Part shown: positions 5,901 through 63,500 of the stretch, piece after piece
Position numbering within the stretch: position 1 is the first letter of the stretch
How the letters are laid out: each line of letters starts with the position of its first letter
Virus record (IMG/VR): IMGVR_UViG_3300042371_001161
Coordinates: 32,001-96,000 of that record
Strand: one strand, 5' to 3'
Length of the DNA: 64,000 nt
Origin: a virus
Made by a program: the position numbers and the translations under genes
The notes under the pieces: model-generated
Told to the model about the DNA's origin: nothing
Database searches by the model: none
Seen by the model: the letters and a program-made list of their open reading frames with translations, nothing else

Positions 5901-7817
5901 AATTCTGCTATCTATTTCTTTGCGTTTTACAATTCTGCCATCTATTCCGCTAAGAGCAACCTGATGTCGACTACCAGCTTTTGCGCTTCCAAAAAACTTC
6001 GAGTTCGGGTCGTTTGAAATAGCACGGAATTTTGAACCAGTGACCGACCCAGGCATGATTACTGGACTCGTCGCCGGATATCCGCTAGAAAGGGCCCCTC
6101 CGCCGCCCCCACCACGACCTGAGGCCAGCGATGACGTTGGGCCAGCCGGACCAAGATTTTTGCCACCAATAGAAACATTTTGAGCGTTAACGCTCATGGT
6201 CTTGACAGTTTGAACCCCTGGCATTAAACGGCCCTTTACGCCGCTCATTTTTTTACCTATAATCGAGAATGCCAGCAATGGTGCAAGGGCCGAAGCTAGT
6301 CCTCCGCCAGCCCCACCACTAAACATTTTGGAAATCATATTGAAGACGCTTGTTAGTCCAGATACTAAGTCACTCAAAAAGGGGAGCATATCCATGAACA
6401 TCTTTTTAAGATTCATGAAGAATTTTGATAAAGAATCGATGAGCTCCCCAACACGTTCGCCGAATTCTGCAACTTCATTTTTGTTTTCAACAAGAAGGTC
6501 CTTGAATAAGGTCAGGTTTCCGGCACCTCGTTTAATTGCCTCCCACACTGGAGTAAAAGCTTTATAAAGCACCTTTGCGCCATCTATGAGTGGGCGAGTT
6601 TGCTCAAGGACCATATCCCAACCACGCTTGAATTTAGAGAACCAATCTCCAATTCTGTCGAACATGCCTAACGCGCCAGGGAGGTATTCGCGAATCATTT
6701 TCACGAGCCAATTAGATGCTTTTTCTATTCCGCCAGCAAAGCCGTCGATTATGCCCGTCGCCCCAAAACTATATGAAATAGCGCCCATTATGCGCTGCAA
6801 GTCTCTGCGTATTGTCCCGAATACCCTCTCAAATGAAGCCTTGAGTGGCTCCAAGAACTGGTCGCCAAAATCAGCAAACTCGCCACGCAATCGACTAAAG
6901 TAGCCCTTCATCTGGGAGATTAAAGTACCGTTTACGGCTTCAAACTGACCAGCGACACCGCCTTTGTCCGCCAACTGCCCGGACATCAGAAGTTCTTTAA
7001 ATTGTTCCTTGGTTTTTATGGTTGTCCCTTTTAGGGCTTTTTCCATTTCTGGGCCAAGTTTTTTAGCTTCTGTTATTACGTCAGAAATACTCTTTTTACT
7101 GTTAGAAAGATTTTCGATAACAATAGATACTTGTTCTAGGCCCTTTGCGGGGTCTTGGCCCGCTGAACCAAAGTCCATCAAAGCCTTGATTGATGCACCG
7201 CTTTTATTTATTTGTGCGGTATTCATCGACTTGGACATGGTTCCGTAAGCCTTGTTGAGTGCTTCGACTCCGAGAGTCGCCAGACTTGCGTCGCTCTGTA
7301 GGTTCCGCATGCCCATTCTTGTCTGATTCATCGCTGAACCAAATGCAGGGGCTCCCTTGCCTCTGTAGGCATAAATGGCGGCCTGCTGCTCCCTGATAGC
7401 GGCGCTCGCTGCCGATATTGCGACGACTACCCCCGCCGCACCAGCAGAAAGCATTTGCATCGCCCCCCTATATGCTTTGACAAGTAATTGCCCAGCTGCA
7501 AATAGTGCGTGGACTCCTATCATCGCAGCTCCAAGGGCTGCCATTTCTATAACGACACCCTTGATAGCCATACCGAGGAACTTAGTGAGCCCTTTTCCTG
7601 CCATTTTGGCGCCAGCATCTATGGCGTCGAAACTGCGTTTCCAGCCTTTTGTGGTATTTGCTAGTTTACTACCCGATTGTTGAGCGAGAGCTTCGCCCCT
7701 GCCGCTGGAAAGTTTTTTTACTCTTTTTTCTAGTAATGAAAGCTGAGCTATTGCTTTAGTGAGCTCCCTAGTTTGGGCCTCAAACTTAATTTTAATATCA
7801 ACTATTTCATCAGCCAT
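2958..7817 (-). CDS. Tape measure protein with C-terminal M15-like Zn peptidase motif
   Basis: 1619 aa, Ala/Gly-rich and helical, with AGAAGG hydrophobic tracts. Follows the tail chaperone gene. C-terminal SDHATGSAYD...HLHV motif. Confidence 0.9.
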   Translation of the reverse strand: MADEIVDIKIKFEAQTRELTKAIAQLSLLEKRVKKLSSGRGEALAQQSGSKLANTTKGWKRSFDAIDAGAKMAGKGLTKFLGMAIKGVVIEMAALGAAMIGVHALFAAGQLLVKAYRGAMQMLSAGAAGVVVAISAASAAIREQQAAIYAYRGKGAPAFGSAMNQTRMGMRNLQSDASLATLGVEALNKAYGTMSKSMNTAQINKSGASIKALMDFGSAGQDPAKGLEQVSIVIENLSNSKKSISDVITEAKKLGPEMEKALKGTTIKTKEQFKELLMSGQLADKGGVAGQFEAVNGTLISQMKGYFSRLRGEFADFGDQFLEPLKASFERVFGTIRRDLQRIMGAISYSFGATGIIDGFAGGIEKASNWLVKMIREYLPGALGMFDRIGDWFSKFKRGWDMVLEQTRPLIDGAKVLYKAFTPVWEAIKRGAGNLTLFKDLLVENKNEVAEFGERVGELIDSLSKFFMNLKKMFMDMLPFLSDLVSGLTSVFNMISKMFSGGAGGGLASALAPLLAFSIIGKKMSGVKGRLMPGVQTVKTMSVNAQNVSIGGKNLGPAGPTSSLASGRGGGGGGALSSGYPATSPVIMPGSVTGSKFRAISNDPNSKFFGSAKAGSRHQVALSGIDGRIVKRKEIDSRIGRGVVYAATGARARDPYADRGQITNPDGTTKPVNPNVNLPLSAKFRATQSLNARSMDELRQIATQKGIVGTQIGGVMGGGQQGPGAPRMSDTFADRKLLVKAIMAKKGSTAEFKNDGRTVSIGQGLANSAKRGALKAVGVADRGQYLARRGFGAIRGGFAQMNSGAWDAEKGEYKDLGTARGALLARRGESDKQGGLKKLGGRLSYRRDMNRISRNDSKFGGGVKKFNNSMGAKMGVGMGLGLASQYAPEEMQGAIALGGMVAQVNPMLGAAVAGIGSALKATSVKAGALAGAAGGAAAGAMFGPYGAAIGAGVGLLVGGIMGAVNAGKEKLKKAKKIIDASMASFFMIDLQKAGRQFQRNAETVKGGGSLKGRDAAMVGLGTSFGKTLGQFNRDITAAIAAGGGSYESNGKTEFNDAKGILDEYFKTDSGKKLTSEERDALKARATNSIRHIMKTSDPLIEAQLSRIDKQNTERIGALSRATGKSGAELEQLAKTLGVDLYDPTIKYNDLLLKFSGSLKKTGAELNDLIADIVLSGANAFKTQREKEEATYALDSNLRQLGDIMRDPSTTADEKTTAMRAHMEPAFNQLLQVAGGDGIMAYQGFIDLFGGKNADGKIFAPGAELAGQGETFVNDPIYQASVRDMEKGAVGAASEQLRTILSSEEHGNLKIEEGVLESQLTTLLQNNPEQFLKLLGDIKDYDLTYDDKDGLRQRLLNAPKGGAGAIPTGTLGLESAYNPALGAQSALSGYGMGELGLAKENTVALDDIATAATNMGTAATGLEEAIKIFNTNMEGFFTAPLGEMPDWWRNGLVMSDDGKTLAPPDTSTPRGGAIGDTSTSKLSQTMSRHAAMNGQLTGKRTVTSSLRNYALGSPSSDHATGSAYDLVGQNLGQYSKLVHANGGFAEFHGSAANRHLHVVPGPGVGDTSVARPISSATSGGGSTNNYYSIEVNGGNSSPEAIAQMVMAKLQDRERSEKERR

Positions 7818-22469: not shown

Positions 22470-24581
22470 ATGCGTTGGAACCCGTCTCAAAATAAAAATA
22501 TAATCCCCCCGTCCCGCAAGGACCTGGGCTATGGAGCTCCGGTATCCATAAACCCGTCCCTAGCAGGGAAAGCGTATAAGGATGGATGGGACATTGAACG
22601 CGCCTATCGCGAGGGAATGTCCAAGATTACTTGGGTCAATAGATGTATTGATGCGATTGCTGGAAATCAGGCTCGCCTTCCAATTATTCTTAGGAAAGAC
22701 AACTCTAATCAGGGGGAAATAGTTCGCGGCCGCGAGGCCAACAGGTCTACCCTCTTAGAGCTCTTGAATAATAAGGCGAATGTAGGAGAAAACTCTTTTA
22801 TTTTCCGATACAGATTGTCGGCTCAGCTGATGCTCGGTACTCGAGGGGCATTCGTAGAGAAAATTAGAGGACGGGATGGGGGAATTATTGCCCTCAACCT
22901 TCTTCCACCTCAATCAACGGCACCAATACCGGACCCCAAAAAGTTCGTATCAGGGTACGAAGTACAAATGCCCTACGGAGAAAAGCAGTTCTTAAAGCCA
23001 GAAGATGTTTGCTGGATAAGGAGACCGCACCCTCTCGACCCTTATCTGTCCCTTACGCCACTGGAAGCGGCTGGGGTTGCCATTGAGATAGAAAACCTAG
23101 CCAAAATCTACAACCGCAACTACCTGCTTAATGATGGTCGTCCTGGCGGCATTTTGGTTGTTCGTGGAGAGATGGAAGAAGACGATAAGGAGGAGCTTAG
23201 AAATAGGTTCCGCGGCAATCTGGCAAGGGCTGGTCATACAACAGTTATTGCTGCCGATGACGGTGTTGATTTCGTCGATACTTCGGCCAATCCGCGCGAT
23301 GCGGCATATGTTCAGATGCGTCAAATAACAAAAGAAGAAATTCTGTCAGCATTTGGTGTTCCTGAATCCGTCATAGGAAACGCTTCTGGAAGAACATTCA
23401 GTAATGCCGGAGAAGAAATCCGTGTTTTTTGGATGGAAACAATGCTCCCCCATCTTGAGCCAATCGCCAGAGCTCTTGATGAACTCGATGACAAGTATTA
23501 TCTAGATTTTGACACGTCAGAAGTCCCAATTCTTATGCTCTACAAGCAGGAAAGAGACAGGTACCTGTTGCAGGAGTTCCAGACTGGCTTAATTAGTGCA
23601 AACGAGTATAGAATCGGTTCTTCTCGTAAAGAAGTTGAGGCAGACCTCGCAGACTCCTTGCTCCAGAACCCCAATCTCATTCCGATTGCTAACACCAAGA
23701 AGAAAATGGAAGAAGGCCAGACTGAAGTCCCAGGTATGCCAGGAATGCCTCCGGGAATGCCAGGAATGCCGCCGGGAATGCCGGGAATGCCTCCAGGTGT
23801 GCCAGGAATGCCCCCAGGACCAGTTCCGCCGGGCGGCGAACCTGTACCGCTGGACGTCAATACGATGGCTGGGGCACTTGCGGAGTCCGCAGCCAGTGGC
23901 CAGCTTGCGCAAACAACAACCCCACCAGAGGCCTTTGGAGGCGGCGTACAGGCTCCAATGCCCCCAGGACCTATGTCCGTGGCATCGTCGCCGGATAACG
24001 AGATACAGGTAAAGTCCACGGAAGAAAAACAAGAGACCAAAGACGCAATTGACCGCAATGAACAGGCGATAGAGCGATGGACGAACATTCTAGCTCGTGG
24101 CATGGAGAGAGTTATTGAGCGCCAGCAACGAGTAGTTCTTGAAAAGGCAAGCGGGACAAAATCAAGGAAAGCCCTAATGCACGGCACGCTTGATATTGAA
24201 TCCGTATTGTCAATAGATACGTGGAACAAGCAGTTCGATGAGGATATTCGTCCTGTTGTGTCATCAATTATTAATGATTCTTTTGAATCGAGAGTTAATG
24301 ACGCATCCACAAACGGTCTCAAAATCAAAGCCTTGCCAGCAAAAGATGTTCGAGCAATGGTTGATGCACATACATTGAGAATTAAGAAAATTAACGAGTC
24401 TCATTTCAATGAAATTAACTCTTTAATGCTCAAATCTTTCGTGTATGCGGATGAAGAAAAACGGTTTAGTTTCTTTCGCGATGGTCTCGTAGAAATGTTC
24501 ACGGATTTTTTTGCGCACCAACAAGAATTACTGGCAGAGCGCGAGACAAGGTCGGCATGGAGTTTCGGCCAGACAGTTTAA
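22470..24581 (+). CDS. Portal protein (HK97 family) with Gly-Met-Pro insert and C-terminal helical extension
   Basis: Contains WVNRCIDAIA, LSPLEAA-like LSLTPLEAA, YNRNYLLNDGRPGG, AFGVPESVIG and GLISANEYR. Confidence 0.92.
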   Translation: MRWNPSQNKNIIPPSRKDLGYGAPVSINPSLAGKAYKDGWDIERAYREGMSKITWVNRCIDAIAGNQARLPIILRKDNSNQGEIVRGREANRSTLLELLNNKANVGENSFIFRYRLSAQLMLGTRGAFVEKIRGRDGGIIALNLLPPQSTAPIPDPKKFVSGYEVQMPYGEKQFLKPEDVCWIRRPHPLDPYLSLTPLEAAGVAIEIENLAKIYNRNYLLNDGRPGGILVVRGEMEEDDKEELRNRFRGNLARAGHTTVIAADDGVDFVDTSANPRDAAYVQMRQITKEEILSAFGVPESVIGNASGRTFSNAGEEIRVFWMETMLPHLEPIARALDELDDKYYLDFDTSEVPILMLYKQERDRYLLQEFQTGLISANEYRIGSSRKEVEADLADSLLQNPNLIPIANTKKKMEEGQTEVPGMPGMPPGMPGMPPGMPGMPPGVPGMPPGPVPPGGEPVPLDVNTMAGALAESAASGQLAQTTTPPEAFGGGVQAPMPPGPMSVASSPDNEIQVKSTEEKQETKDAIDRNEQAIERWTNILARGMERVIERQQRVVLEKASGTKSRKALMHGTLDIESVLSIDTWNKQFDEDIRPVVSSIINDSFESRVNDASTNGLKIKALPAKDVRAMVDAHTLRIKKINESHFNEINSLMLKSFVYADEEKRFSFFRDGLVEMFTDFFAHQQELLAERETRSAWSFGQTV
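23730..23819 (+). repeat. Imperfect 21-nt coding repeat encoding (GMPGMPP)n
   Basis: ccaggtatgccaggaatgcctccgggaatgccaggaatgccgccgggaatgccgggaatgcctccaggtgtgccaggaatgcccccagga. Confidence 0.85.
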
Positions 24582-24707: not shown

Positions 24708-27700
24708 ATGCCATCAGAATTGTTTGAATATAAGTCGTCTACGCTCGGGCACTCCGACTCCATCAATTTGGATGAAGCGCAGGGAATTGTCGAATGCTTC
24801 GTGGCTGGCATCGGCAACAAGGACTCTGTGGGCGACATCGTTGCCACTGGAGCATTCACGAAGAGCCTCCAACGCCGTAAGCCGCGCGTTGTCTGGGGAC
24901 ACAGTTGGAATGACCCCATTGGCAAGGTTCTAGAGATTTACGAAGTTCCGAACACGGATAATCGCCTTCCTATGAAAATGAAGATGGCCGGAATTGGTGG
25001 CCTGTTCGCTCGAGTTCAGTTCAATCTCAATTCAGAAAAAGGTCGCGAAGCATTCGCCATGGTCGCCTTCTTTGGCGAAGAGCAGGAGTGGTCGATTGGT
25101 TACAAGACACTTCGAGCTCAGTTTGACCAGAAATCCCAAGCAAATATCATTTATGAACTTGAGTTATATGAGGTATCTCCGGTTCTGCATGGCGCAAACC
25201 AGCTAACTGGGACTATTTCCGTTAAGTCCGAAGAGTTGTCCGGTGGAATCTTGATGTCCATGATGAACGAAGAAAACCCAATTGACAAGGCAGAGATAGA
25301 AAAGCAGCTTGCTGCAATTTTGGGCGCAAAAGTATCTTTAATGGAAGTTAACGACGAAGAGATTACGTTTGCGCGAAGAATGGACAACGGAGAAGTTGGC
25401 CGCTACAAGTGTGGATTCAGCAATAATCGCGGACATTATATGTTCGGTGCGCCGCGCCCCATTGTTGTAATGCCCGTGCGTAAGCCCATTGCTCCTGTAA
25501 GCGCAATGCCAATGGCGATGCCAGGTATGCCCCCAAATGAGCCACAAAGAATTGTTCGGCCTTCTCAAATGCCATCAATCCCAGTTGCTATTAAGCCAGG
25601 CGAAAACGGCAACCAGATAGTTCCTTTGCCACCAGTGCAATACGAAAACGATAATGGAAGTCGATTTGACCCAAGTAATCTTGACCAAGAAGAAGCTGAC
25701 TTAAGAGATGCTCTTTTAAAAATCGTAAAGCGTCACGGAAAGTTTAACGAAGATTCCGAGGGAGTATGGGCAGCGTATACCCCTGCTGCACAAAATGAAG
25801 TTGCCGGAATCGGCGTCAAGTGCTCCAACTGCGTCTTTTATCAGGGTGGAAGCGCCTGCAAGATAATCGACATGGAAGTAGAACCTGAAGGTAAGTGTCG
25901 TTTTGCCGTCATCCCAAAGGGCGTTGTCAAGGGAGCCGGCTCAAAAGCATATGAACTCGACGAGGAATTCGCCGAAGAAGATTACGTCGCTGACCTCGAG
26001 GTGAAATACCCCGGGGAATTAGCAGTTGCAGGACTTCGTGGAGTGGTCGGCAAGCGGAGAAAGAAGCGTCGGAGCTTTAAGTTCTTGAGTGAATTTGGTT
26101 CCAAGAGTGAAGATTTTGAAGACAAGCCATACTTACTTCCAGTTGTACCTCAGTTCGCGTTCCAAGTAAAACAAGTTCTTGACCCAATCTTTGATTACCA
26201 TGGTGTTGATTCTTACGTCGACACAAGCGGTATCTTCATGACTTCTGGCGTTACTTACGAATTGATTGAGGCAGTCGACAACGCTGTCGCAAATTTAAAA
26301 AAAAAATCCTTAAGTGAAAACAACCTAGAGTGGAAAGCAGCCGGGTATCGCCTCGGCAGAGCTATCAGCAGTCGATTAATTGACCGCCCAAACATCGGCG
26401 GAGGTCGTTCTCGCGGTCGTTTCTTCACATCTGTGGGTGCGGAAGACTTTGACCCATTCACTGCACGCGACTCCAACCTTAACGGCATCGTAGGAGAGGG
26501 ACTGTTCCTGCGTGGAGTTCCGCTTGCCGTAAATGACCCAACACCAGATGGTCCTGGCTCTATTCGTAACCCCAAGCCATCCCCCAGGCAGGTTGCGAAG
26601 CCGAATGCTGCAGCAATTTCTCGAGCGGAAATTCAAGTAGAGAAAATAACAAAACCTAAAGAGCGCCAGAAACTTTCCTCTGGAAGCGAGCTTGTAAATC
26701 TTCCGCGAATAGACGACCCGGATGTTGATTCGGCAGAAAAATATGGCGCAGCAGAGTCGCAGCGTGACGAGCTTCAAGGCGTTTTGGATGGAGCATCAGA
26801 TTCTGACCAAATAAAGAAGTTAAAGAAGGCCATTGCGGAAATCGACAAATACATGGAACGTGTCGAGAAGATGGCCGAAGGCGAAATGGCTGATACTGAA
26901 AAGCCAAAGAAAAAGCCCGTAAAGAAGCAGGTAGAAAAGACCAGTCAGGGTCTTTCAAGCGGCTACGGCAAGTATCTAAATAAGCCCGAGGCGAAGCGGA
27001 CGCAAGACGAGCGCCGCAAATATGACGGCCCCCTGTCCTCGCTTTCATCAGGAAAGTTGGCAGACAAGGCAGAGCTTCCCGAAGGCTCCAGCCAGCTTGA
27101 AGAGTTATACAAGGAAATGGCAAAAGATATTGTCGCTATTTTGCAGGAACTCGCCAACAATCCAGACGCATCAAAAAGATGGGAATTGCCATGGCGTAAT
27201 GCCGAGAATTATGCGCGGAATCCAACTAGTGACCGCATCTACCAAGGCATGAATCAGATGATTTTGTCCCTTACGGGCTCAGCTCGCGGCTACAAAATGA
27301 ATCGATGGGCCGGAGAGGGACAGTGGAAAAAGTTAGGCGGCAAAGTAAAACCGGGAGGCAGAAACAGGGGAGTGCAGGTTCTCGTTCCTCGTGAAGGACG
27401 AAGCTTTACTGATTCAACTGGCAAGCAAGTTGAAATGGGTCGCTACTATTCTGTTCAAACGGTATACAACGTCGATGAAATTGCAGGACTCCCAGAAAGT
27501 TTCTACGAGCTTGGTGATGTAGAAATAAACCAAGAGCAACGGTTGCAGGATATAGAAAATGTCATTAAGGAAATAGGTCCTTCTTTTGTCGAATCTCTAG
27601 GCTCGCAGGCTTTTTATCGCCCCGCCACCGACAAAATTCATATGCCTGCATTTGAACAGTTCAAGGATGCTTTGGCTTTTTATGGAACTGCAATGCATGA

Positions 27701-30700
27701 GACAATCCACTGGACATCGCATCCGAGTCGACTCGACAGAAAATTGGGGAAAACGTTTGGAGACGAAGATTACGCCTTTGAAGAACTTATTGCAGAAATA
27801 GGCTCCGCGTTTGCAATGGGCGCAATGGGCCTTGAACCAACGATACAAGAAAACCATTTGCTTTACCTAAGTAGCTGGATAAAGAAACTACAAAAAGACC
27901 CGCTAGCAATTCACCGGGCCATTCTGCAGGCGCAGAAAGCAAATGACTACATAATGGACCGCTCTGCCACAATGCGCAAGCTCGCAGGTATCCCTGACGG
28001 CGAACGCAAGGGCAAGGACTCGGGCTGGTTTGAAATACCAATGATTGCTGGATATCCGGGTGGAGAAAAAATAAAGTCACCAACAACAATCACGGGACCA
28101 ATGGAAGACCTGCTTGACATGGAGCAGTACGACGAACTTGTTCCGGATGCTCGAAATCTAAGTATCGAAGAGCGCGAAATGCGCTCCTTCCAGATTCATC
28201 CAAATGCTATACGCAGGAACAAAGACGGCGTAGTAATTACGCCATCTGGAGCTTTGGCAAGCGGCAAAAAGGCTGGCCCAATCAAGAGCAGGAAGGGCGC
28301 TCCCGACGTAGAGCGCACCGATGAAGATATTTCCATGAAGTTTGCGTTCGGCTTAAGTAATGAGCCAACAAACGAGCAGCGAGACATTATGGATGTTGTT
28401 ATGCGTCTTGTTCGTGAGAAAAACCCACAAATCATGTCTATTCTTGCTGGTGCAGGAACAGGAAAAACTACAACCCTGAAGAGTATTGCATGGGCGTTGG
28501 CTCGTGAATTCAACCTATGGCCAGAAGGCGACGAGCGTCGCAAAGAACAACTCAAGTATTTAGCAGATAGATATAAGATTGATTTTAGCAAGATGTCTTC
28601 AGAAGAAATTGCGTTAGCAGTAGCAAAACTTGCAAAAGACAACCCCATGGGCAATATGTATTACACGGTTTTTAACACAAAAAACCAGCATGAAGCCGAG
28701 AAAGAATTCCCTAAAAATACGGGTATAGCCACGACCGACAAGCTTTTTCTTTGGTCTCTAATGCTAGGTGGTGGCGACAAAAGATTTGGTCCTGCGTTCC
28801 GTAGAAAAATGGCAGTCCAGAAACTTAAAGCAGATAACTCAGCCGCCGGAAGCGGTAAAGATAATCCAAAATTTATAAGTAAAGAAAAAACTCCAGATGA
28901 ACCAAGGAGAATTGGTTCCGATTTTGTTCGCGAACATTTTGATGGCACGATTGAAACATTTGTAGGAGAGGAGCCTGGTTACAGGACCCTTGGTTGGCAG
29001 AGACTTGATGATGCCGTGGACTGGATTAAATTCCTTGGGATAGACAAATGGCCCGACCAGCAAACCAGAAGAAGAGACCGAGTACAGAAGGACTCCAAGG
29101 GCAGAACAGTCCGTGACGCCAACGGCAAAGAAGTTCGTGAACAATACGACGAGTCAATATTTATTCTCCCTGATGGAAGAGGAACAACACAAGTAACCAC
29201 TGAAGAAATGGCCGATATTCTCAGTAACGCTCTCGGAAGATGGGAAATATCAAAAGAAGAAAAAGCAGCAGCATGGATGTTTACGCCGTCGGCATATCGT
29301 GCAGAGGGCCGCACCACCCCTAAAGGCCAGGGAAAAGACATTCATGTCGTGGACACGGTCCTCACAGAGGACCAAGTACCCAAATTGTGGGTTGAGGCCC
29401 TCCAGCAAGCGATAGATGCAATGATGGACGGCAACAGCAACATGATTCCGCGAAGGGACTCTGTTCAAAAACTATGGCTACTTTCGAATCCGGACTTAAG
29501 AACCGACCCTGGCCTCATAACGCATTCTGAAAATCAAACAAGAAACAAAGTGCCGATACCGAATACATACAAAGTTGGAGACAAGTATGTTGACGAGAAC
29601 GGTGAAGAATGGATTGTGGCGGGAACCTCGCGAGATGGTTCAAGTAGCAAAGTAAAAGCAAGACTTGCCAAGCGGGTTGCCACTGTCGAGAATCCACTCA
29701 GCGCGTTCATGGTAGACGAGTCTCAAGACTCTAATGAAATTTTGGAAACCGTATTAGAAAACAATAGAAAAAATCTTCCAATAATTTTAGTGGGTGATGA
29801 TAGACAGGCTGTTTATGCTTTCCGCGATGCGAAGAACATACTTGATTCCCTTGATGCTGAATATTCGCTATCAATAACCGAATCATTTAGGTATGGACCA
29901 GTCGTCGCTCACTTAACCAACATGGCACTTGGTCGACAGAACCTCTACCTGAGAGGACAGGAAGTTCCGCAGTCAATGGACTGGAAGCATGTGAAGGGTC
30001 AGGCACAAGAGGTCATAAACATGTTGTTTGACCCAGTGCTTGCAAAAAAAGACAGAAAAGGCGCAAATCAAGTTCCAGAAATCAACGACAAAACACGCGC
30101 CCTGATTATCGACGATATTGAAAAAAGATTTTCAACACCAGATAAAAAAATTGAGATATCTGACAAGACCAGAGTTGCTCAGGATGCAATTCTAAAACAA
30201 CTACGCGACGAGCTCTACGATGAAAGAGAAGGAAAAATAGTCGACTTTGTTGAACTCGCCAATCAAGGCATCTTCCCAGACGCCATTTTAACAGGGACTA
30301 ATGCGGAAATTATAGACTGGGCCCTCAAGTTCATTGACCTAGTCATCAATAGGCCGAACGCCGAAAAAGACGAAAATGGATTCCCAAAAATACCAGAAGT
30401 AGTTATTCCAGCCAAAAAACATGAAGATTTGTTGGCATTTACTATTCAACTTGACTACATCATGAAAAGTCCAGAACAGCAAGCGGCATACGAAAAAATA
30501 TTTGGGGGACGTCCCCCTGAATCCCAGTGGCTTGGGCCAGTCTGGACACAGGGAAGACTTCAACAATTACTTAAACAATCCAGGTCCCAACAGCTAACCA
30601 CCGCATACAGACTCATAACGACAGCCCCACCAGGACAAGCGCCTCTTGGAACTCGCGGAATGCTCACCCTTCTTCGGGGTGAAAATATTGTTGAAGAAGT

Positions 30701-33371
30701 AAACGGCAAACAAAAAATTCGCACCGTTCCTGCGGTGCTATTGCCAGAAAGAAAAACTCAACAACTAAACAATTTTACTGGCGATGACTCAGACCCATCA
30801 AAAGGTGTCAGGGCAGTAGTTATGGGAATATCTCGCGGCACCAAAGCGGCAGAAGCAGAACAGGCGAGTGATAGTCAGCGTAAAAAAATAATTATAATTC
30901 CTCAACCAACTGGAGCCACCGATGGAAGGTCGGCTGTTTATGCACAGCTCGAAATTAATGGTGGTAGCAGTACGAAACCAGGAAAGCCAACCGGCAAAAT
31001 AATCATTACTGGAGATGGCGTTGATAGTAATCGGCCAAAAATCAACGATGATGGTTCTGAGTCAAGAAACAAGGCACCCAATCAAAGGGTTGGTAACGGT
31101 AGATTCAGAAGGAATCTCGAGAAAATAATTCAAAGATATGGACTTCAAGACAAGGTTAAGCCCAAAGAAGAGGCAGAGGGGGCCATGAAGGGAGGTTCTA
31201 AGCGTCGCCTGTATGACGGTTGGGTGATTGAAGGAGAAACTCTACAAGAAAGTTCGGACATATTGGAACTTCTCGGTCAGGCTCTTCGTGACGAAGCAAA
31301 GGAAGTTGGCGGAGATGTTCAAATAACCACGATGGCACTGAGCAAGGGGCGGGAATTCGACTATCTCGTTATGGCGGACGACATTGACGACCCTGATGAC
31401 TTATTGCCTCAAAGTACACCGAAGGGTGAGGCTTCCATAGGATGGATGCAGGCAACGAATCTCATACATGTAGGCCTTTCACGTGCTAAAAAAATGATAG
31501 ACCCAGGAGCAAAGACCTTTGCCTTTTATTTGCACGACCAGAAAACGAAGCCAGTTCGCGAAGCGATGGCTCAAGCCGTAAAAGATGGACACATCCCAGA
31601 AGGGCTCGACAGAGGAGCATTTGGCGATGAGGGCGGAATACCGCTGCCGGACTTCTATCAAAAACTAAACGCCATGCGCGTCGAAGATATCAATTTCGAC
31701 AACCTCCCTGCAAGGGGCGGCGCAAAACCAGACCCATCGACAGGCCTGTCAAGTGGAGCGGGTAGTGGCCCCAAAAATACACCAACTCGTCGCGACGGCA
31801 GACTCAATAGAAGAGGGTCGTCAGGCGGCAGTAGAATTTACGATGGCAGCGGAAGCGCACAAGAAATTGCTGGCATTCGCTTTAGGGGTGACTTAAAGTC
31901 GCCAAAAGAGCAAGCCAAGTTGAATTTCTCAATGAACGTGTGGAAGCGTTTCCGTGACGTCGGAATAGCAATAGATGTGGACGACGATGCATCAGAAACC
32001 GAAGCACGCAAATCTAAAAACGCTGCAACAATAAAGTCAGTTGGTGCAGAGATGAAGAAGCGCCAAAACCTCGTTCGTGTCGGCAGAGTGGGCGACAATA
32101 ACGTGAATGACGCTCCCTCGGCGCTGACATGGATGCTGTCCGTGGACAAACTTGCTGAAACTCTAAGAGTTCCGACCGAATTTGTTTCCGCCAATAGGGA
32201 CGGGAAGAGTTCGCTACAGTGGACTCAGACCCGCCCGGTTACACGCAAAGAGCTTGCAACACTTCTTGGCTTGAATGGTCCAGATACGGCAGCCCTGGAA
32301 GCGCCGGACGCCGGCATCAACCATGATGCTGTCAGACTGCTTATTGCCGAACTCGGCAAGCAACCAGAGCTGAGCGCATGGCGATACTTTTCCCCAGTTA
32401 GCGCCGAAGAAGTAGCAAAGATTATCCCGCCATCACCCAGTGGTGATGTTGAAGGATTCTCAAAGATAGACCTTGCTTTGGAAAATGTTGGTCGCGCAAA
32501 CATGCGTGACAGGTTCATAATCGAGACCTTCGGCAAGGACGCGTTCCCTCATTGGTTCGACCCGGAAGAGGGCGAGTCCATAACGCCAGACGAATACAGC
32601 AAGCTTGGCGAAATTAGCGCAGTGTCTAAATTCCGCGCAACTGGTCGCTTTGACCCAGAGGACCCGACCAAGGGCGACTCAGAGGCAGAATACGACCTCT
32701 ACGGAGAGCTTATTGATGGCGTTCTGCCTAGTGCGGAACCAGATGGTGAGATAATTAGTGGAGACAAAACAAGCAGAGAAGATTTTGAATTAGAGCAGCT
32801 TCTGAAATATCTAGGAATCGATAGACAAGAATGGAAGACGACCCTTAAAGAACGAATGTCTGCTGCTTTCGGAATGGATGCCGTCGGAGCATGGGACGAA
32901 TGGAAGAAAGACGGAATACCAACGGCCACGGTCGCTCACATGATTAGAACTGGGTTAATACCTAACGCCGCTTCAGTCTGGAAAGACGCGTCCACGGGCG
33001 AAAGATTTGACAACGAACTGAAGAAATCAAAATACGCCGTGTATGAAGCATTAAACGAATTTATTGACAAGAGTTTTCCTGATAGCAAGCTCAATAGCCA
33101 AGCCAGTCGAAACAAGATAACTGGAAGAACTGACATGGGTGTTGCGTTAAGAGATGCTGCGACGGCAAAAGGCTCGGCATGGTCTCCGAAAAAAGGAAAC
33201 GAAGCAAGATTCTCTGACTCAGAATTGCAATCAATAGTTGACAGATTTAATGAAGTGTTCGGAACCAATCACACCATCGATGACATATTTAGCGCCGAAC
33301 AACTGAGAACTGCCGCAGAAAGAATTGAGTCTGGTGAAACCTTGTCTGGCAAAAAGAGAAAAGTAAGTTAG
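24708..33371 (+). CDS. Giant fusion: HK97-type prohead protease (S78) + HiPIP-like Cys motif + ArdC-N/MPTase zincin + SF1 (UvrD-like) helicase + unknown C-terminal domain
   Basis: Protease: GNKDSVGDIV...VVWGHSWNDPIGK...EWSIGY...LYEVSPVLHGAN. ArdC: WELPW..RNPTSDRIYQGMNQ..YYSVQTVYNVDEI. Zincin: QAFYRPATDKIHMP..HETIHWT..YAFEELIAEIGSAF. Helicase motifs: AGAGTGKTT, VDESQD, VGDDRQAVYAFR, TESFRYGP, SKGREFD, HVGLSRAKK. Confidence 0.88.
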   Translation: MPSELFEYKSSTLGHSDSINLDEAQGIVECFVAGIGNKDSVGDIVATGAFTKSLQRRKPRVVWGHSWNDPIGKVLEIYEVPNTDNRLPMKMKMAGIGGLFARVQFNLNSEKGREAFAMVAFFGEEQEWSIGYKTLRAQFDQKSQANIIYELELYEVSPVLHGANQLTGTISVKSEELSGGILMSMMNEENPIDKAEIEKQLAAILGAKVSLMEVNDEEITFARRMDNGEVGRYKCGFSNNRGHYMFGAPRPIVVMPVRKPIAPVSAMPMAMPGMPPNEPQRIVRPSQMPSIPVAIKPGENGNQIVPLPPVQYENDNGSRFDPSNLDQEEADLRDALLKIVKRHGKFNEDSEGVWAAYTPAAQNEVAGIGVKCSNCVFYQGGSACKIIDMEVEPEGKCRFAVIPKGVVKGAGSKAYELDEEFAEEDYVADLEVKYPGELAVAGLRGVVGKRRKKRRSFKFLSEFGSKSEDFEDKPYLLPVVPQFAFQVKQVLDPIFDYHGVDSYVDTSGIFMTSGVTYELIEAVDNAVANLKKKSLSENNLEWKAAGYRLGRAISSRLIDRPNIGGGRSRGRFFTSVGAEDFDPFTARDSNLNGIVGEGLFLRGVPLAVNDPTPDGPGSIRNPKPSPRQVAKPNAAAISRAEIQVEKITKPKERQKLSSGSELVNLPRIDDPDVDSAEKYGAAESQRDELQGVLDGASDSDQIKKLKKAIAEIDKYMERVEKMAEGEMADTEKPKKKPVKKQVEKTSQGLSSGYGKYLNKPEAKRTQDERRKYDGPLSSLSSGKLADKAELPEGSSQLEELYKEMAKDIVAILQELANNPDASKRWELPWRNAENYARNPTSDRIYQGMNQMILSLTGSARGYKMNRWAGEGQWKKLGGKVKPGGRNRGVQVLVPREGRSFTDSTGKQVEMGRYYSVQTVYNVDEIAGLPESFYELGDVEINQEQRLQDIENVIKEIGPSFVESLGSQAFYRPATDKIHMPAFEQFKDALAFYGTAMHETIHWTSHPSRLDRKLGKTFGDEDYAFEELIAEIGSAFAMGAMGLEPTIQENHLLYLSSWIKKLQKDPLAIHRAILQAQKANDYIMDRSATMRKLAGIPDGERKGKDSGWFEIPMIAGYPGGEKIKSPTTITGPMEDLLDMEQYDELVPDARNLSIEEREMRSFQIHPNAIRRNKDGVVITPSGALASGKKAGPIKSRKGAPDVERTDEDISMKFAFGLSNEPTNEQRDIMDVVMRLVREKNPQIMSILAGAGTGKTTTLKSIAWALAREFNLWPEGDERRKEQLKYLADRYKIDFSKMSSEEIALAVAKLAKDNPMGNMYYTVFNTKNQHEAEKEFPKNTGIATTDKLFLWSLMLGGGDKRFGPAFRRKMAVQKLKADNSAAGSGKDNPKFISKEKTPDEPRRIGSDFVREHFDGTIETFVGEEPGYRTLGWQRLDDAVDWIKFLGIDKWPDQQTRRRDRVQKDSKGRTVRDANGKEVREQYDESIFILPDGRGTTQVTTEEMADILSNALGRWEISKEEKAAAWMFTPSAYRAEGRTTPKGQGKDIHVVDTVLTEDQVPKLWVEALQQAIDAMMDGNSNMIPRRDSVQKLWLLSNPDLRTDPGLITHSENQTRNKVPIPNTYKVGDKYVDENGEEWIVAGTSRDGSSSKVKARLAKRVATVENPLSAFMVDESQDSNEILETVLENNRKNLPIILVGDDRQAVYAFRDAKNILDSLDAEYSLSITESFRYGPVVAHLTNMALGRQNLYLRGQEVPQSMDWKHVKGQAQEVINMLFDPVLAKKDRKGANQVPEINDKTRALIIDDIEKRFSTPDKKIEISDKTRVAQDAILKQLRDELYDEREGKIVDFVELANQGIFPDAILTGTNAEIIDWALKFIDLVINRPNAEKDENGFPKIPEVVIPAKKHEDLLAFTIQLDYIMKSPEQQAAYEKIFGGRPPESQWLGPVWTQGRLQQLLKQSRSQQLTTAYRLITTAPPGQAPLGTRGMLTLLRGENIVEEVNGKQKIRTVPAVLLPERKTQQLNNFTGDDSDPSKGVRAVVMGISRGTKAAEAEQASDSQRKKIIIIPQPTGATDGRSAVYAQLEINGGSSTKPGKPTGKIIITGDGVDSNRPKINDDGSESRNKAPNQRVGNGRFRRNLEKIIQRYGLQDKVKPKEEAEGAMKGGSKRRLYDGWVIEGETLQESSDILELLGQALRDEAKEVGGDVQITTMALSKGREFDYLVMADDIDDPDDLLPQSTPKGEASIGWMQATNLIHVGLSRAKKMIDPGAKTFAFYLHDQKTKPVREAMAQAVKDGHIPEGLDRGAFGDEGGIPLPDFYQKLNAMRVEDINFDNLPARGGAKPDPSTGLSSGAGSGPKNTPTRRDGRLNRRGSSGGSRIYDGSGSAQEIAGIRFRGDLKSPKEQAKLNFSMNVWKRFRDVGIAIDVDDDASETEARKSKNAATIKSVGAEMKKRQNLVRVGRVGDNNVNDAPSALTWMLSVDKLAETLRVPTEFVSANRDGKSSLQWTQTRPVTRKELATLLGLNGPDTAALEAPDAGINHDAVRLLIAELGKQPELSAWRYFSPVSAEEVAKIIPPSPSGDVEGFSKIDLALENVGRANMRDRFIIETFGKDAFPHWFDPEEGESITPDEYSKLGEISAVSKFRATGRFDPEDPTKGDSEAEYDLYGELIDGVLPSAEPDGEIISGDKTSREDFELEQLLKYLGIDRQEWKTTLKERMSAAFGMDAVGAWDEWKKDGIPTATVAHMIRTGLIPNAASVWKDASTGERFDNELKKSKYAVYEALNEFIDKSFPDSKLNSQASRNKITGRTDMGVALRDAATAKGSAWSPKKGNEARFSDSELQSIVDRFNEVFGTNHTIDDIFSAEQLRTAAERIESGETLSGKKRKVS
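26294..26306 (+). repeat. TTT-A10 homopolymer / in-phase slippery sequence
   Basis: AAT TTA AAA AAA AAA TCC. This is the longest homopolymer I noticed in the window. Confidence 0.8.
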
Positions 33372-48484: not shown

Positions 48485-49834
48485 ATGTCGCAAGACAATT
48501 CCCGTACCGAGGAGCTTCAATCAGCCCTCCGTCAGAAGATGGCAGACAACAAGACCATCGCTGACTCATTCAAGGTAGAAGACGGCACAGTAGTCGTCAC
48601 TACGGAACAGAAGACCGCGTTCGACAAGAACATGCGAGACATCAAGGAAATCAAGTCGCTTCTTAGTGACCTTGATACCATGAAGTCAGTCGACCAGTGG
48701 GGCTCACAGCCTGCAGGCGAATCAGCCGCAGCAATGTACGCTGCCGCTGCCGCAGACCTCAGTCACTTGTCTTCACGTGAAATCAAGAGCATCGGTCAGC
48801 TATTTCTTGATTCTCCGGAATTCAAGGCACTCAATGGTGGTCGCAATGGCGCAAACATGGTTGCCCCATGGACCGTCGCTGCTTCACTGACGACCCAAGG
48901 AATGTACAACGTCAAGGATGTCTTCTCGGCAACCCCGACCGGCACCCCTGGTTCGTTTGGAACGATTCAGCGTGACCCGATGGTGACCCCGCCGACCCGC
49001 ACAAAGCGCGTTCGCGACTTGTTCCCGGCCCGTAAGACCAATGCTGCTGTTATCGAATACTTCCGTCAGTTGGGTTTCACGACCCTACAGACGGGCCATG
49101 GTACGAACAGCGCCTCATCGGTTGCTGAGCGAAATAGCGGCAACACCGCCTTTGGCCTCAAGCCACAGTCGTCGTTCGCCTTCGTTGGTGAGCAAGCCCC
49201 AATTCGCACACTCGCACACTGGGAAGCTGCACACCGCAACGTTCTGTCGGACGAGCCGCAATTGCGTTCAATCATCGACAACGAACTCATGTACGGTCTC
49301 CGTCTCCTTGAGGATAATCAAATCCTCAATGGTGATGGCGTCGGCGAGAACTTGCTTGGTGTTTTGAATACCCCCAACATCCAGCAATACGCCTGGTCAG
49401 ATGGAGAAAACTCCCCGGTCGCAGATACAAAGGCCGATGCACTTCGTCGCGCCGCAACTCTCTCGTTCCTTGCTTACTACGAGCCATCTGGCGTCGTACT
49501 GCACCCGAACGACTGGGAAGACATCGAATTGACCAAGGATGCCAATGGCCAGTACCTCATCGCAGTTTCGGTTGCAATGGGTGGCGAGCCACGCGTCTGG
49601 AGAATGCCGGTAATTGATACCCCAGCAATGACCGCTGGCAAGGCCCTTGTCGGAGCATTCGGTACAGGAGCACAGTTGTACGACCGCGAAGAGGCGAGCA
49701 TTCGTATCTCTGAGCAGCACTCGGACTTCTTCATCCGTAACGCAATCGTGATTCTCGCCGAGCAGCGTTTAGCTCTCGCAGTGAAGCGTCCCGAAGCGTT
49801 CGTTGAGGTTACCTTCGACAACGAGCCAGCCTGA
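48485..49834 (+). CDS. Major capsid protein, HK97 fold
   Basis: Helical N-terminal delta-like domain. Contains RVRDLFP, IRTLAHW, LEDNQILNGDG.GENLLGVL, VVLHPNDW...KDANGQYL, RVWRMPV, FIRNAIVILAEQRLALAVKRPEAF. Confidence 0.96.
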   Translation: MSQDNSRTEELQSALRQKMADNKTIADSFKVEDGTVVVTTEQKTAFDKNMRDIKEIKSLLSDLDTMKSVDQWGSQPAGESAAAMYAAAAADLSHLSSREIKSIGQLFLDSPEFKALNGGRNGANMVAPWTVAASLTTQGMYNVKDVFSATPTGTPGSFGTIQRDPMVTPPTRTKRVRDLFPARKTNAAVIEYFRQLGFTTLQTGHGTNSASSVAERNSGNTAFGLKPQSSFAFVGEQAPIRTLAHWEAAHRNVLSDEPQLRSIIDNELMYGLRLLEDNQILNGDGVGENLLGVLNTPNIQQYAWSDGENSPVADTKADALRRAATLSFLAYYEPSGVVLHPNDWEDIELTKDANGQYLIAVSVAMGGEPRVWRMPVIDTPAMTAGKALVGAFGTGAQLYDREEASIRISEQHSDFFIRNAIVILAEQRLALAVKRPEAFVEVTFDNEPA

Positions 49835-60518: not shown

Positions 60519-63500
60519 ATGTCTGTAGATAACAATGAGTTCCACATCCCCTTTGAGGAAACGCGTCGCGGTGTAGATTCAAACACCGAAGAAAAGGCCG
60601 CCCTCGGTCGGCTGGGGCGCTATTTGGGCTCCAGAGCCACAAACAGACCCACTATCGGCCAGAGGCGAAGAGGCAGGGGCGGTGGTCGAGGGGTCGAAAT
60701 ACCTACCGGCGGCAAGCCAGGCACACGAAACCCAACGGGCTCGCGAAGGGACGTCGATGGAGACGGCTGGGCTGACGAAGGAACCAAGAAGCCGGTATGG
60801 GTGGGGATGGGGAATACGGAGCCCGCATCAAAACCAAAGCCTCAAGCGCAAAGACAAACAGCGAAAAGAACCGAGACAGAAGTTGCCAAGAAGCTATCCA
60901 GTGGATTGGAGCAACTGTCGCCGTTAGAGCGTTACGACTATGGTCCAGTGGTTGCTGCCAAAAAAATCAAAAGCAAAGACACCGAATACAGGCTAGTCAT
61001 TAGGAATGACTTTGATATTGGCATCTATCTTGAATCAGATTTCAACAAAGCACGCGACGTTTTAGTCGAGAGATTCAACAAACTTGGAGCGAACCCCTTC
61101 AACGATAAGCCATCTCCATTGGGTCCGGAGGATATCGACGACAGGGATGTTCTGAGGTTCATGCTCGACAACGATAAGACCATAAAAACCATGTCGGCCA
61201 TGCAAGTATGGTCGCCCGGTGGCGGCAGTCGAACTGAAGTTTTTCAAATCAACACAAGACCCAAACACCAAAGACGTGGTCTCGCAGCAGAGATGTTCAA
61301 TACACATAGGGAAACTTTCCCTGAGTTGGACCTTCAGCACAGTGATGCGTTGAGCGAGGATGGTCGAGCATTTTCAAAAGCAGTACCGGCTACGTCCAAC
61401 ATGGAATCCCCAGATAGGCCGTCCAGTCTTTCGTCTGGAAAAAAATATCAAGAGCTTGTCGATGCTCAGCCAGAATTAACCGAAGAAAAGTTGCGTCAGA
61501 TAGACGAGCTTAATGAATTATTAAGAAGCGATTTACTTGATAGCGCCGACTCGTATAGTGAAGATACTGATGTATTTGGCACAGGAATAGATATTTTAAA
61601 TGATTCACCAGAGCGTGCAGCACAAAGAAAAAGAGTGCATGATTTATTACGTGAAATTTTTAGTGGAGAAATTGAGTTAGAGGAAGACATCATCGTCACC
61701 GCTACTAATGGCGAAAAAATAAATTTAGGAAAAACTGTTGTTGTTGATGTTGCTGAATCTTTCGAAGCCCTTGGCTGGCAGGTGGAGATAGACGAAGTAA
61801 GTGAAGAAGATATACAACTAGTCCAAGACCAAACTTTTGAACCATTTCTTTCAGCCGATTCAACCGGCATTGGCCTAGCCGCAAGATTTCAATTCAAACT
61901 AACCCCCACTGCCGATGCCGCAGAACGACTAACTGCAGCCGGGGTGCCAGATGAAATGATTTGGGATGAGATGATGTCGGTTGGGCCCGGCACCCAAGGA
62001 GAAGTGCAATTTGGTCGCTCCGCAAGAATGCTTTCGTATTTTCCTGGAGATAAACCAACGGCGACGATGCAGCATGAGACTTTCTTTCTGAATTCGGAGT
62101 CTCAAGGACACGGCATAGGAAGCGCATTCAATGCAAGAAATGAAAAAATATACGAAGCTATCGGTCAATTAAAAATATTTGCAGCGGGGACGTCCAATAC
62201 CGAAGAATCCATTGGGGCGACGCACTGGCCTAGAAATGGATTCACGTGGGCCGGGGAACCAGGGAAACAAACTTTTCTTGGGACAATCGCAGAAGCCCTC
62301 GATGATACTGAACAGAACTGGTTTAGTCCGGAAGAGAAATCCCGGATATCGTCATTAATACGGAAAAATCCTGATACGGGCTTATTTGAAACTGACTCAA
62401 CCCCAGAAAATCTTCTCAAATTCCAACGAGCAACGGAATTATTCAAAGAAAAAGAATTGTCGATTCTTTACGTGCGTGAAGTATCCAAGAGAAAGACTCC
62501 AGCCGGCGCACTTTCCAGTGGGCGCATCGGAACCGTAAAAACAGAACCAGTCGAGATGATGCGTTCAACGGAGTTTCCGAAACTAGGTACTAAATTAATT
62601 GATTCTGGCGGTACGCCCGACCCCACCTCTAGTCAAAAACAATATATGGAATTCCCGGTTTACGAAATTGACGGGAAAAAATTTGCGTTTGGCAATACTG
62701 ACTTGGGCCGATTCCAGCCTGAGTTCAATACCGAAGATATAGAGATAGTCCCTCTAAATCCTTACGCAATTGTCGGACTGCCCAAAACCTCCACCGAAGG
62801 ACAAGAGTGGGCGTTGAAAATGTTTCATGCGATTCAAGCAGTTTCTCTTCTTGACGACATTGAGGCTGGGCGTGTTGGCAATAGAAAAGTTGGCCTAGTC
62901 GCAGCTTTAACTTATGCTGCGAAGCGGGGAGATAAGCCTGCCCTAGAAGAACTGGAACGTTTGGCAAAAATTGGTGAGGAGCTTTTAGTAAACAACCGAC
63001 GAGATTTCGTATCGGCTGCGAAGGTGTACAACGAACAGATGTGGGACGTTGACGGCACCTATTGGGACGACACGCCAAATATGCAAGTCGTTCTTGGCCC
63101 GACAAGAACCAATGAATACGGCGACACCGTCCGCACAACAAGAGCACTAGGCATCGATGACATGTTTCTTGTTCACCAAACATCATATAAGCCTCAGTAT
63201 GATGACGACGGCAATATTATTCTTAAACCAACCGGGGATTTTATCCCAATTGACCCCAATACTGGCGAGCAATTATTGGACCCCATATCAGGCAAGCCAG
63301 TCGCCATGCCAGACCGCGATTCCATACATATGACCCTTAATCACATGGTCAAGGGTCATATGTGGAGAAATGAGCCCACGGAATCAACAAGCGTTATCAT
63401 CGTTCCACTAAGAGACGTACTTGACGCTAACCCCGGCTCCTTGGACAACCTTTTCGTAGTTGACACATTCCTCACACCAAAGCCAGGTGAAGGACTTGTC

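Follow-up and report, generated by a model that had tools for sequence, protein, structure and literature searches.

The 64,000-nucleotide (nt) stretch analyzed here (the window) covers positions 32,001 to 96,000 of IMG/VR virus record IMGVR_UViG_3300042371_001161 and is part of a 119.7-kb viral contig from an uncultured lake phage. It contains a 2887-codon open reading frame (ORF; 24708-33371; the ORF, the parts of it described below and the second leader copy are on the plus strand) in which a prohead protease and its C-terminal domain are followed by a leader and a long cargo region, and at the joint between protease and cargo lies a run of ten adenines (A10; 26297-26306). We propose that this run is a programmed two-isoform switch, whichever machine slips on it, with a protease-only protein and a protease-cargo fusion as its two products, and based on sequence comparison we assign this interpretation a probability of about 0.83. 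Such a switch was suggested in an original prediction made from this stretch of DNA, and it is now supported by the run itself, by the stops that close the shifted frames, and by lineages in which the cargo lies out of frame and is under selection.

The A10 run and its predicted shifted-frame products

The run occurs in the context caaattt + A10 + tcc and is read in frame as AAT TTA AAA AAA AAA TCC, just as originally described, giving residues N529 L530 K531 K532 K533 S534 when counted from the ORF start at 24708. One additional A, or a −1 shift, would lead to ...LKKKILK and a TGA at 26315-26317, ending a product of 536 amino acids (aa). One A fewer, or a +1 shift, would lead to ...LKKNP and a TAA at 26311-26313, ending a product of 534 aa. 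The expectation that both shifted frames stop at once and leave a protease-only product of ~535 aa is borne out by these two lengths.

A10 is the longest homopolymer of the window and the sole homopolymer of at least 9 nt within an ORF of at least 150 codons on the whole contig. It also occurs in five near-identical contigs from other samples, and because these give the same length the run is not an assembly artefact; the original prediction had named a sequencing artefact in the run length as a possible objection. Within the run, the in-phase heptamer A_AAA_AAA (X_XXY_YYZ type) is present twice. Two kinds of in-phase heptamer had been put forward; of these, A_AAA_AAA is conserved, whereas T_TTA_AAA is not, relatives having AAC-CTA, AAC-ATA, or GCA-GTA in its place, and we rejected T_TTA_AAA as a shift site for that reason.

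Conservation of the run, its stops, and an out-of-frame cargo

Searches of IMG/VR and of JGI metagenome contigs, the metagenome search covering the best 80 of 288 matches, identified over 140 loci that encode a related protease. Grouping the run-carrying loci at 90% nucleotide identity gave 25 clusters; among the first 15 of these, which the identity matrix covers, the upstream 900 nt are 50–87% identical. The 12-nt core TTA AAA AAA AAA (26295-26306) is found as NTA-AAA-AAA-AAA in 25 of 25 clusters, and the run is never synonymously broken. While the residue before KKK varies (Leu from TTA/CTA, Ile from ATA, Val from GTA), its codon ends in A throughout, and the four core codons have a third-position entropy of 0 bits, compared with 1.3–2.0 bits at flanking codons across the 25 clusters. 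Lysine codons in the same ORFs are divided between 1175 AAA and 1166 AAG, and no KKK run elsewhere in them is free of AAG. With the first 15 cluster representatives taken as independent, the codon pattern has a joint probability of ~1e-24; the clusters are not fully independent, although synonymous sites are saturated between most of them.

The sole fully invariant block of a 190-nt alignment is TAAAAAAAAA. Run lengths among relatives extend from A9 to A11, with A10 and A11 both in frame, the extra A being part of the next codon, and the same run is found in more than 50 more distant contigs. In a tree built from the protease part by a quick maximum-likelihood search, the run is present in 27 of 27 rows of one well-supported clade and in part of a second clade. 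Conservation in relatives was one of the tests suggested for the original prediction, and the run is kept unbroken in 25 diverged clusters; these patterns indicate that it is conserved at the nucleotide level beyond the needs of the protein and far more than expected by chance.

The out-of-frame stops near the run, likewise proposed as a test, are conserved in relatives in both frames. A −1 stop lies 3 codons after the run in 21 of the 23 in-frame clusters and 4 codons after it in the other 2, a stop at such a distance having a probability of 0.34 at random positions of the same ORFs; in the +1 frame, a stop lies within 2 codons in 21 of 23 clusters (random-position probability 0.126). Depending on the lineage, the TGA is built from AGT GAA, ACT GAA, AAT GAT, GAT GAC, or TCT GAG, and the +1 TAA/TAG is built from YTA followed by A or G. 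Because different lineages use differing codon pairs, the stops are maintained and not merely inherited.

In the L029 lineage, known from assemblies of at least three samples (L029/L075, L067/L148, L076, and L150), the core reads TTA (or ATA) AAA AAA AAG TCC, an A9 with a G directly behind it. The identity between L067 and L029 is 96.6%, and the 3.4% difference over 4.5 kb indicates that the two are different strains. Here the protease frame reaches its stop 8 codons from the Leu codon, and the cargo occupies the −1 frame, running for more than 2089 codons without a stop and with its ArdC-N, MPTase, and helicase domains intact. The open stretch of this cargo frame begins just 11 codons ahead of the run, and more than 60 codons pass without an ATG or GTG. 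Comparison of the out-of-frame cargo of L075 and L076 over 1323 codons gives a synonymous divergence (dS) of 0.53 and a ratio of nonsynonymous to synonymous divergence (dN/dS) of 0.10. As this −1-frame cargo has no start and is under purifying selection, it would be makeable only by recoding at the run, and a long, selected, start-less ORF overlapping such a run matches the classical comparative signature of programmed recoding. The bare protease would then be the default product of the A9+G lineage and a slip would make the fusion. Among the comparative tests, we give this lineage the greatest weight. If this is correct, A9+G genomes carry neither pseudogenes nor split genes, a caution for annotators.

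The same A9+G layout is present in L071, a single 2.2-kb contig that is independent of the L029 lineage on the tree and sister to the in-frame L070; a pattern search for more copies of the L071 genotype found none. A second A9 (GCA AAA AAA AAT) is located 377 nt downstream in the cargo frame of the L029 lineage (L149:5000-5008, with the same sequence in L148 and L150).

Proposed slippage mechanism and alternative explanations

According to the model we propose, A10 would be a slippage site bordering two units, the first (residues 1-533) comprising a capsid-maturation protease with its C-terminal domain and the second a leader-headed cargo polyprotein that includes an ArdC anti-restriction module, a zincin, a superfamily 1 (SF1) helicase, and unknown domains. 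Straight reading would give the 2887-aa fusion. RNA polymerase would also make mRNAs whose run has gained or lost a single A, and such a one-base slip would move translation into a frame that stops 2–3 codons later, yielding the protease-only form of 534–536 aa. The fusion would give the junction peptides KKKSLSENNLEWK, while the short forms would end in KKKILK or KKNP. The ratio of the products may set the number of bare proteases and of protease-cargo chains per procapsid, in the manner of Gag/Gag-Pol. Prohead proteases co-assemble inside the procapsid, so a protease-cargo chain would bring its ArdC, zincin, and helicase modules into the head, where cleavage, perhaps at L-S-S-G peptides, could free them for ejection with the DNA. 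In A9+G lineages the same site would work in reverse, with the short form as default and the slip leading to the fusion.

RNA-polymerase slippage on the 9–11 A's has, in our estimate, an even chance of being the source of the slip, and we slightly favor it over a −1 shift by the ribosome. What is conserved is 9–11 A's rather than a heptamer alone, and each of the shifted frames soon meets a stop. The family has no conserved RNA structure (RNAalifold −0.37 kcal/mol, 3 pairs) and no conserved upstream Shine-Dalgarno (SD) sequence near the run, and the window has no stable structure after the run (z 0.10; z −0.46), in agreement with the original observation that a well-spaced stimulatory hairpin or SD is missing. 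Bacterial RNA polymerase slips efficiently on 9 A/T, whereas E. coli ribosomes shift poorly on A_AAA_AAA, much less than on A_AAA_AAG (PMC5009743). Transcriptional slippage on A11 yields two length variants of tssM1 (PMC4256274). Near the run we found no promoter-like site, and the one terminator-like hairpin, ~100 nt downstream, is no more than shuffles give.

Several observations weigh against the proposed switch or against the polymerase as its source, and some of them would be better explained if the same two isoforms arose from the ribosome, either by −1 frameshifting on A_AAA_AAA/A_AAA_AAG or by sliding on a lysine poly(A) track, an explanation that we regard as possible but the less probable of the two. 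All clusters have the run in one and the same phase, NTA + AAA AAA AAA, which the ribosomal route needs and the polymerase does not, although common descent also explains it. In both out-of-frame lineages, the L029 group and L071, the G after A9 creates a classical zero-frame A_AAA_AAG, the shift site of dnaX (PMC5009743), and the cargo lies in the −1 frame; a G or C directly after the run is seen in 0 of the 23 in-frame clusters. As both lineages carry this in-phase heptamer, our preference for the polymerase is not firm, and the slipping machine may differ between in-frame and out-of-frame lineages. L071 also has a stable structure 12 nt after the heptamer (z −3.31, a value that none of 200 shuffles reached), which is absent from the in-frame sister L070 (z −1.10), but this structure comes from the single 2.2-kb contig. 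E. coli ribosomes are reported to slide on iterated AAA codons (PMC4363877). On the other hand, a pure −1 shift has no need of a +1 frame that closes fast or of ten A's in place of seven, and the family lacks the conserved downstream structure at 5–9 nt or upstream SD expected to assist it. Two further observations concern the switch itself. Many deeper clades lack both the run and a ~14-residue insert and are still fused directly to leader and cargo, so a short isoform made by way of the run is not essential to the family; the distribution suggests that the protease-cargo fusion is old and that the run is a derived, strongly maintained addition. The gene was found in contigs (not reads) of 16 DNA and 4 RNA sequencing runs, and between 25300 and 27300 the contigs of the 4 RNA runs cover 25707-25927 and 26687-26856 only, none of them crossing the run.

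The remaining explanations dispense with recoding or with its purpose. The run could be a DNA-level contingency tract, in which replication slippage heritably toggles the cargo fusion; A9, A10, and A11 are all found among relatives, and over 9,215 nt L025 differs from L012 by a single A, having A9 where L012 has A10. However, the A9 of L025 may reflect either an error of assembly or variation in the population, A10 and A11 are both in frame and would not constitute a switch, and the A9+G assemblies of at least three samples all have A9 with a long, stop-free cargo whose purifying selection an untranslated off state would not give, which makes this explanation improbable. We consider it a little less probable still that the run acts by attenuating or pausing translation, so as to lower or delay cargo synthesis, with truncated products as waste. 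Poly(A) tracks are reported to cut protein output (PMC4363877), and fast stops in both frames would limit junk tails, but truncation falls at the end of a unit, protease plus C-terminal domain, that is conserved family-wide, and in the A9+G lineage the short form appears to be the default product. Least credible is a run without function, arising by chance, from a KKK motif with a preferred codon, or from a sequencing artefact. A9 words are not rare given the composition (4.55 matches in shuffles vs. 2 observed), but the codon pattern, the conservation across clusters, the conserved stops, and the recurrence of the run in near-identical and more distant contigs contradict this explanation.

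Known systems and organization of the fusion gene

In Gag/Gag-Pol of retroviruses and totiviruses, and in the G/GT tail chaperones of phages, a −1 ribosomal frameshift at a heptamer with a stimulatory structure makes the extended form, which is thus the recoded product. The switch proposed here would be similar in that a set share of a capsid-targeted protein is extended with enzymes by a frame slip, but differs in that the extended form is the default in most lineages. The dnaX gene produces tau and gamma by RNA-polymerase slippage on a run of 9 in Thermus thermophilus and by −1 ribosomal frameshifting on A_AAA_AAG in E. coli (PMC5009743). As in dnaX, one gene would give a long and a short product with a common N-terminal part, the slip would take place at the edge of a domain, on a run of A/T or an A-rich heptamer, and would soon lead to a stop in the shifted frame, and lineages of homologous genes differ in their frame arrangement (PMC5009743). 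Unlike in dnaX, here a capsid protease forms the short product and a cargo of ~2,350 aa is added in the long one, there is no conserved SD or hairpin, and the system is known from its sequence only. Another known system is tssM1 of Citrobacter rodentium and Yersinia, which undergoes transcriptional frameshifting on A11 and for which both variants and their ratio are needed (PMC4256274). In tssM1, a structural gene of a phage-tail-like machine, the A-run gives two length variants, and the A9+G lineages resemble it in having the short form as default and the long form made by the slip; in the window, by contrast, the long form would be the default, the slip would truncate it, and the gene joins a head protease to cargo.

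The cargo resembles the polyvalent proteins of phages and conjugative elements, which are thought to be packaged and delivered with DNA (Iyer et al. 2017, PMC5512222), in combining ArdC-N and MPTase-PolyVal with a helicase in one giant chain. In that survey assemblin-like peptidases are always C-terminal and no frameshift is mentioned, whereas the Peptidase_S78 domain here is N-terminal (residues 27-170) and the putative recoding site lies between protease and cargo. Gordonia phage DalanDe gp27 (L147, ON755184.1 22424-27325), a 1633-aa protein annotated as 'capsid maturation protease', has its protease near the C terminus and so provides a mirror image of this arrangement.

A full-text literature search found no published description of a conserved recoding site at a head-protease/cargo joint. 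Recoding on A-runs is already known from dnaX, insertion sequence (IS) elements, and tssM; its use at the joint of a head protease and a packaged anti-restriction-helicase cargo is, to our knowledge, new. If the interpretation is correct, the phage fixes the count of very large cargo molecules per capsid while keeping enough free protease, double-stranded DNA phages have a strategy of the Gag/Gag-Pol type, and sister lineages of opposite frame state allow polymerase and ribosome slippage to be compared. With somewhat less than even odds, we extend this to a large group of uncultured freshwater tailed phages that would load an anti-defence polyprotein by way of a protease fusion dosed by recoding in the manner of Gag/Gag-Pol, the site having flipped between A10/A11 with the fusion as default and A9+G with the protease as default, possibly with a change from polymerase to ribosome between sisters.

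The fusion ORF is preceded by a portal gene (22470-24581), and the major capsid protein is encoded further on (48485-49834). Its Peptidase_S78 prohead serine protease domain (24786-25217; Pfam E-value 1.2e-11; PHROG head maturation protease E-value 9e-28) is almost invariant over 34 relatives. Against cultured phages, blastn gave no match and tblastn matched the protease domain only. An AlphaFold2 model built on the 34 relatives predicts a small C-terminal alpha/beta domain in the short isoform (residues 470-533; 26115-26306; predicted local distance difference test score 82-93) that contains a conserved DPIFDYH motif and whose last helix (517-532) ends at KKK; residues 255-418 are of low confidence and were left uninterpreted. 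In this model the run codes for the final residues of that helix, in a domain predicted with confidence, which places the terminus of the short product at a domain border. A Foldseek search of the short-isoform model against the PDB returned nothing at E ≤ 0.001, only weak herpesvirus-protease rows at E ~0.09. About 70 residues before the run is a basic K/R block, GKRRKKRRSFK (residues ~457-467; 26076-26096), which is kept in all relatives (consensus RRKKRR) and might serve in binding DNA or the capsid or mark a site of cleavage.

The cargo opens with a leader module, E-x-K-A-x-G-x-R-L-G-R...IDRPNIGG (26328-26423), which here starts as EWKAAGYRLGR 8 codons past the run. Its second copy (60588-60680) forms residues 24-54 of a separate giant protein of 3305 aa, whose ORF starts at 60519, occupies 60519-63998 of the window, and continues beyond it to ~70433 in the genome. 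That the leader near the run is shared with this protein was noted in the original prediction; BLASTP (E-value 2e-4) and a leader hidden Markov model (HMM; E-value 6.6e-9) agree, and over the genome the two ORFs are the only significant matches of the HMM. After the leader, the cargo encodes ArdC-N (residues 799-907) and an MPTase-PolyVal zincin (948-1071), together spanning 27102-27920 (Pfam E-values 1.7e-15 and 1.7e-39), and an SF1/UvrD-type helicase region (residues 1224-1710; 28377-29837; Pfam AAA_19 and UvrD-helicase, 4e-11).

The cargo is modular, the position of the ArdC module differing between lineages. In L052-L054 and L098, the fused cargo opens like the separate 60519 protein, with IPTGG...RRDVDGDGWADEGT, and in these loci and L099 this 60519-type opening, including the leader, directly follows the protease, which indicates that cargo swaps between fused and separate-gene states. 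L054, which belongs to a clade without the junction run, has an A10 of its own (7716-7725, DRKKKLG) 30 codons past the joint, and L052-L054 have a common A9 at LSSGR-KKK-GK in the cargo (L052:4350-4358, L053:9832-9840, L054:8968-8976), closely followed by stops in the two shifted frames; these extra A-runs may be further slippage sites at module borders. The other homopolymers of at least 9 nt in the genome of the window's phage, a T10, a T9, and a G9 (G000:C1:113771-113780, 103853-103861, and 114784-114792), are outside the window and in no ORF of at least 150 codons; we rejected them as further recoding sites, and they are probably intergenic signals. Finally, L-S/A-S-G peptides (KLSSG, GLSSG, SLSSG, ALASG, GLSSG) recur between the cargo modules (26673-31757), in the 60519 protein, and beside the A9 of L052-L054, and are candidate cleavage sites for the protease.

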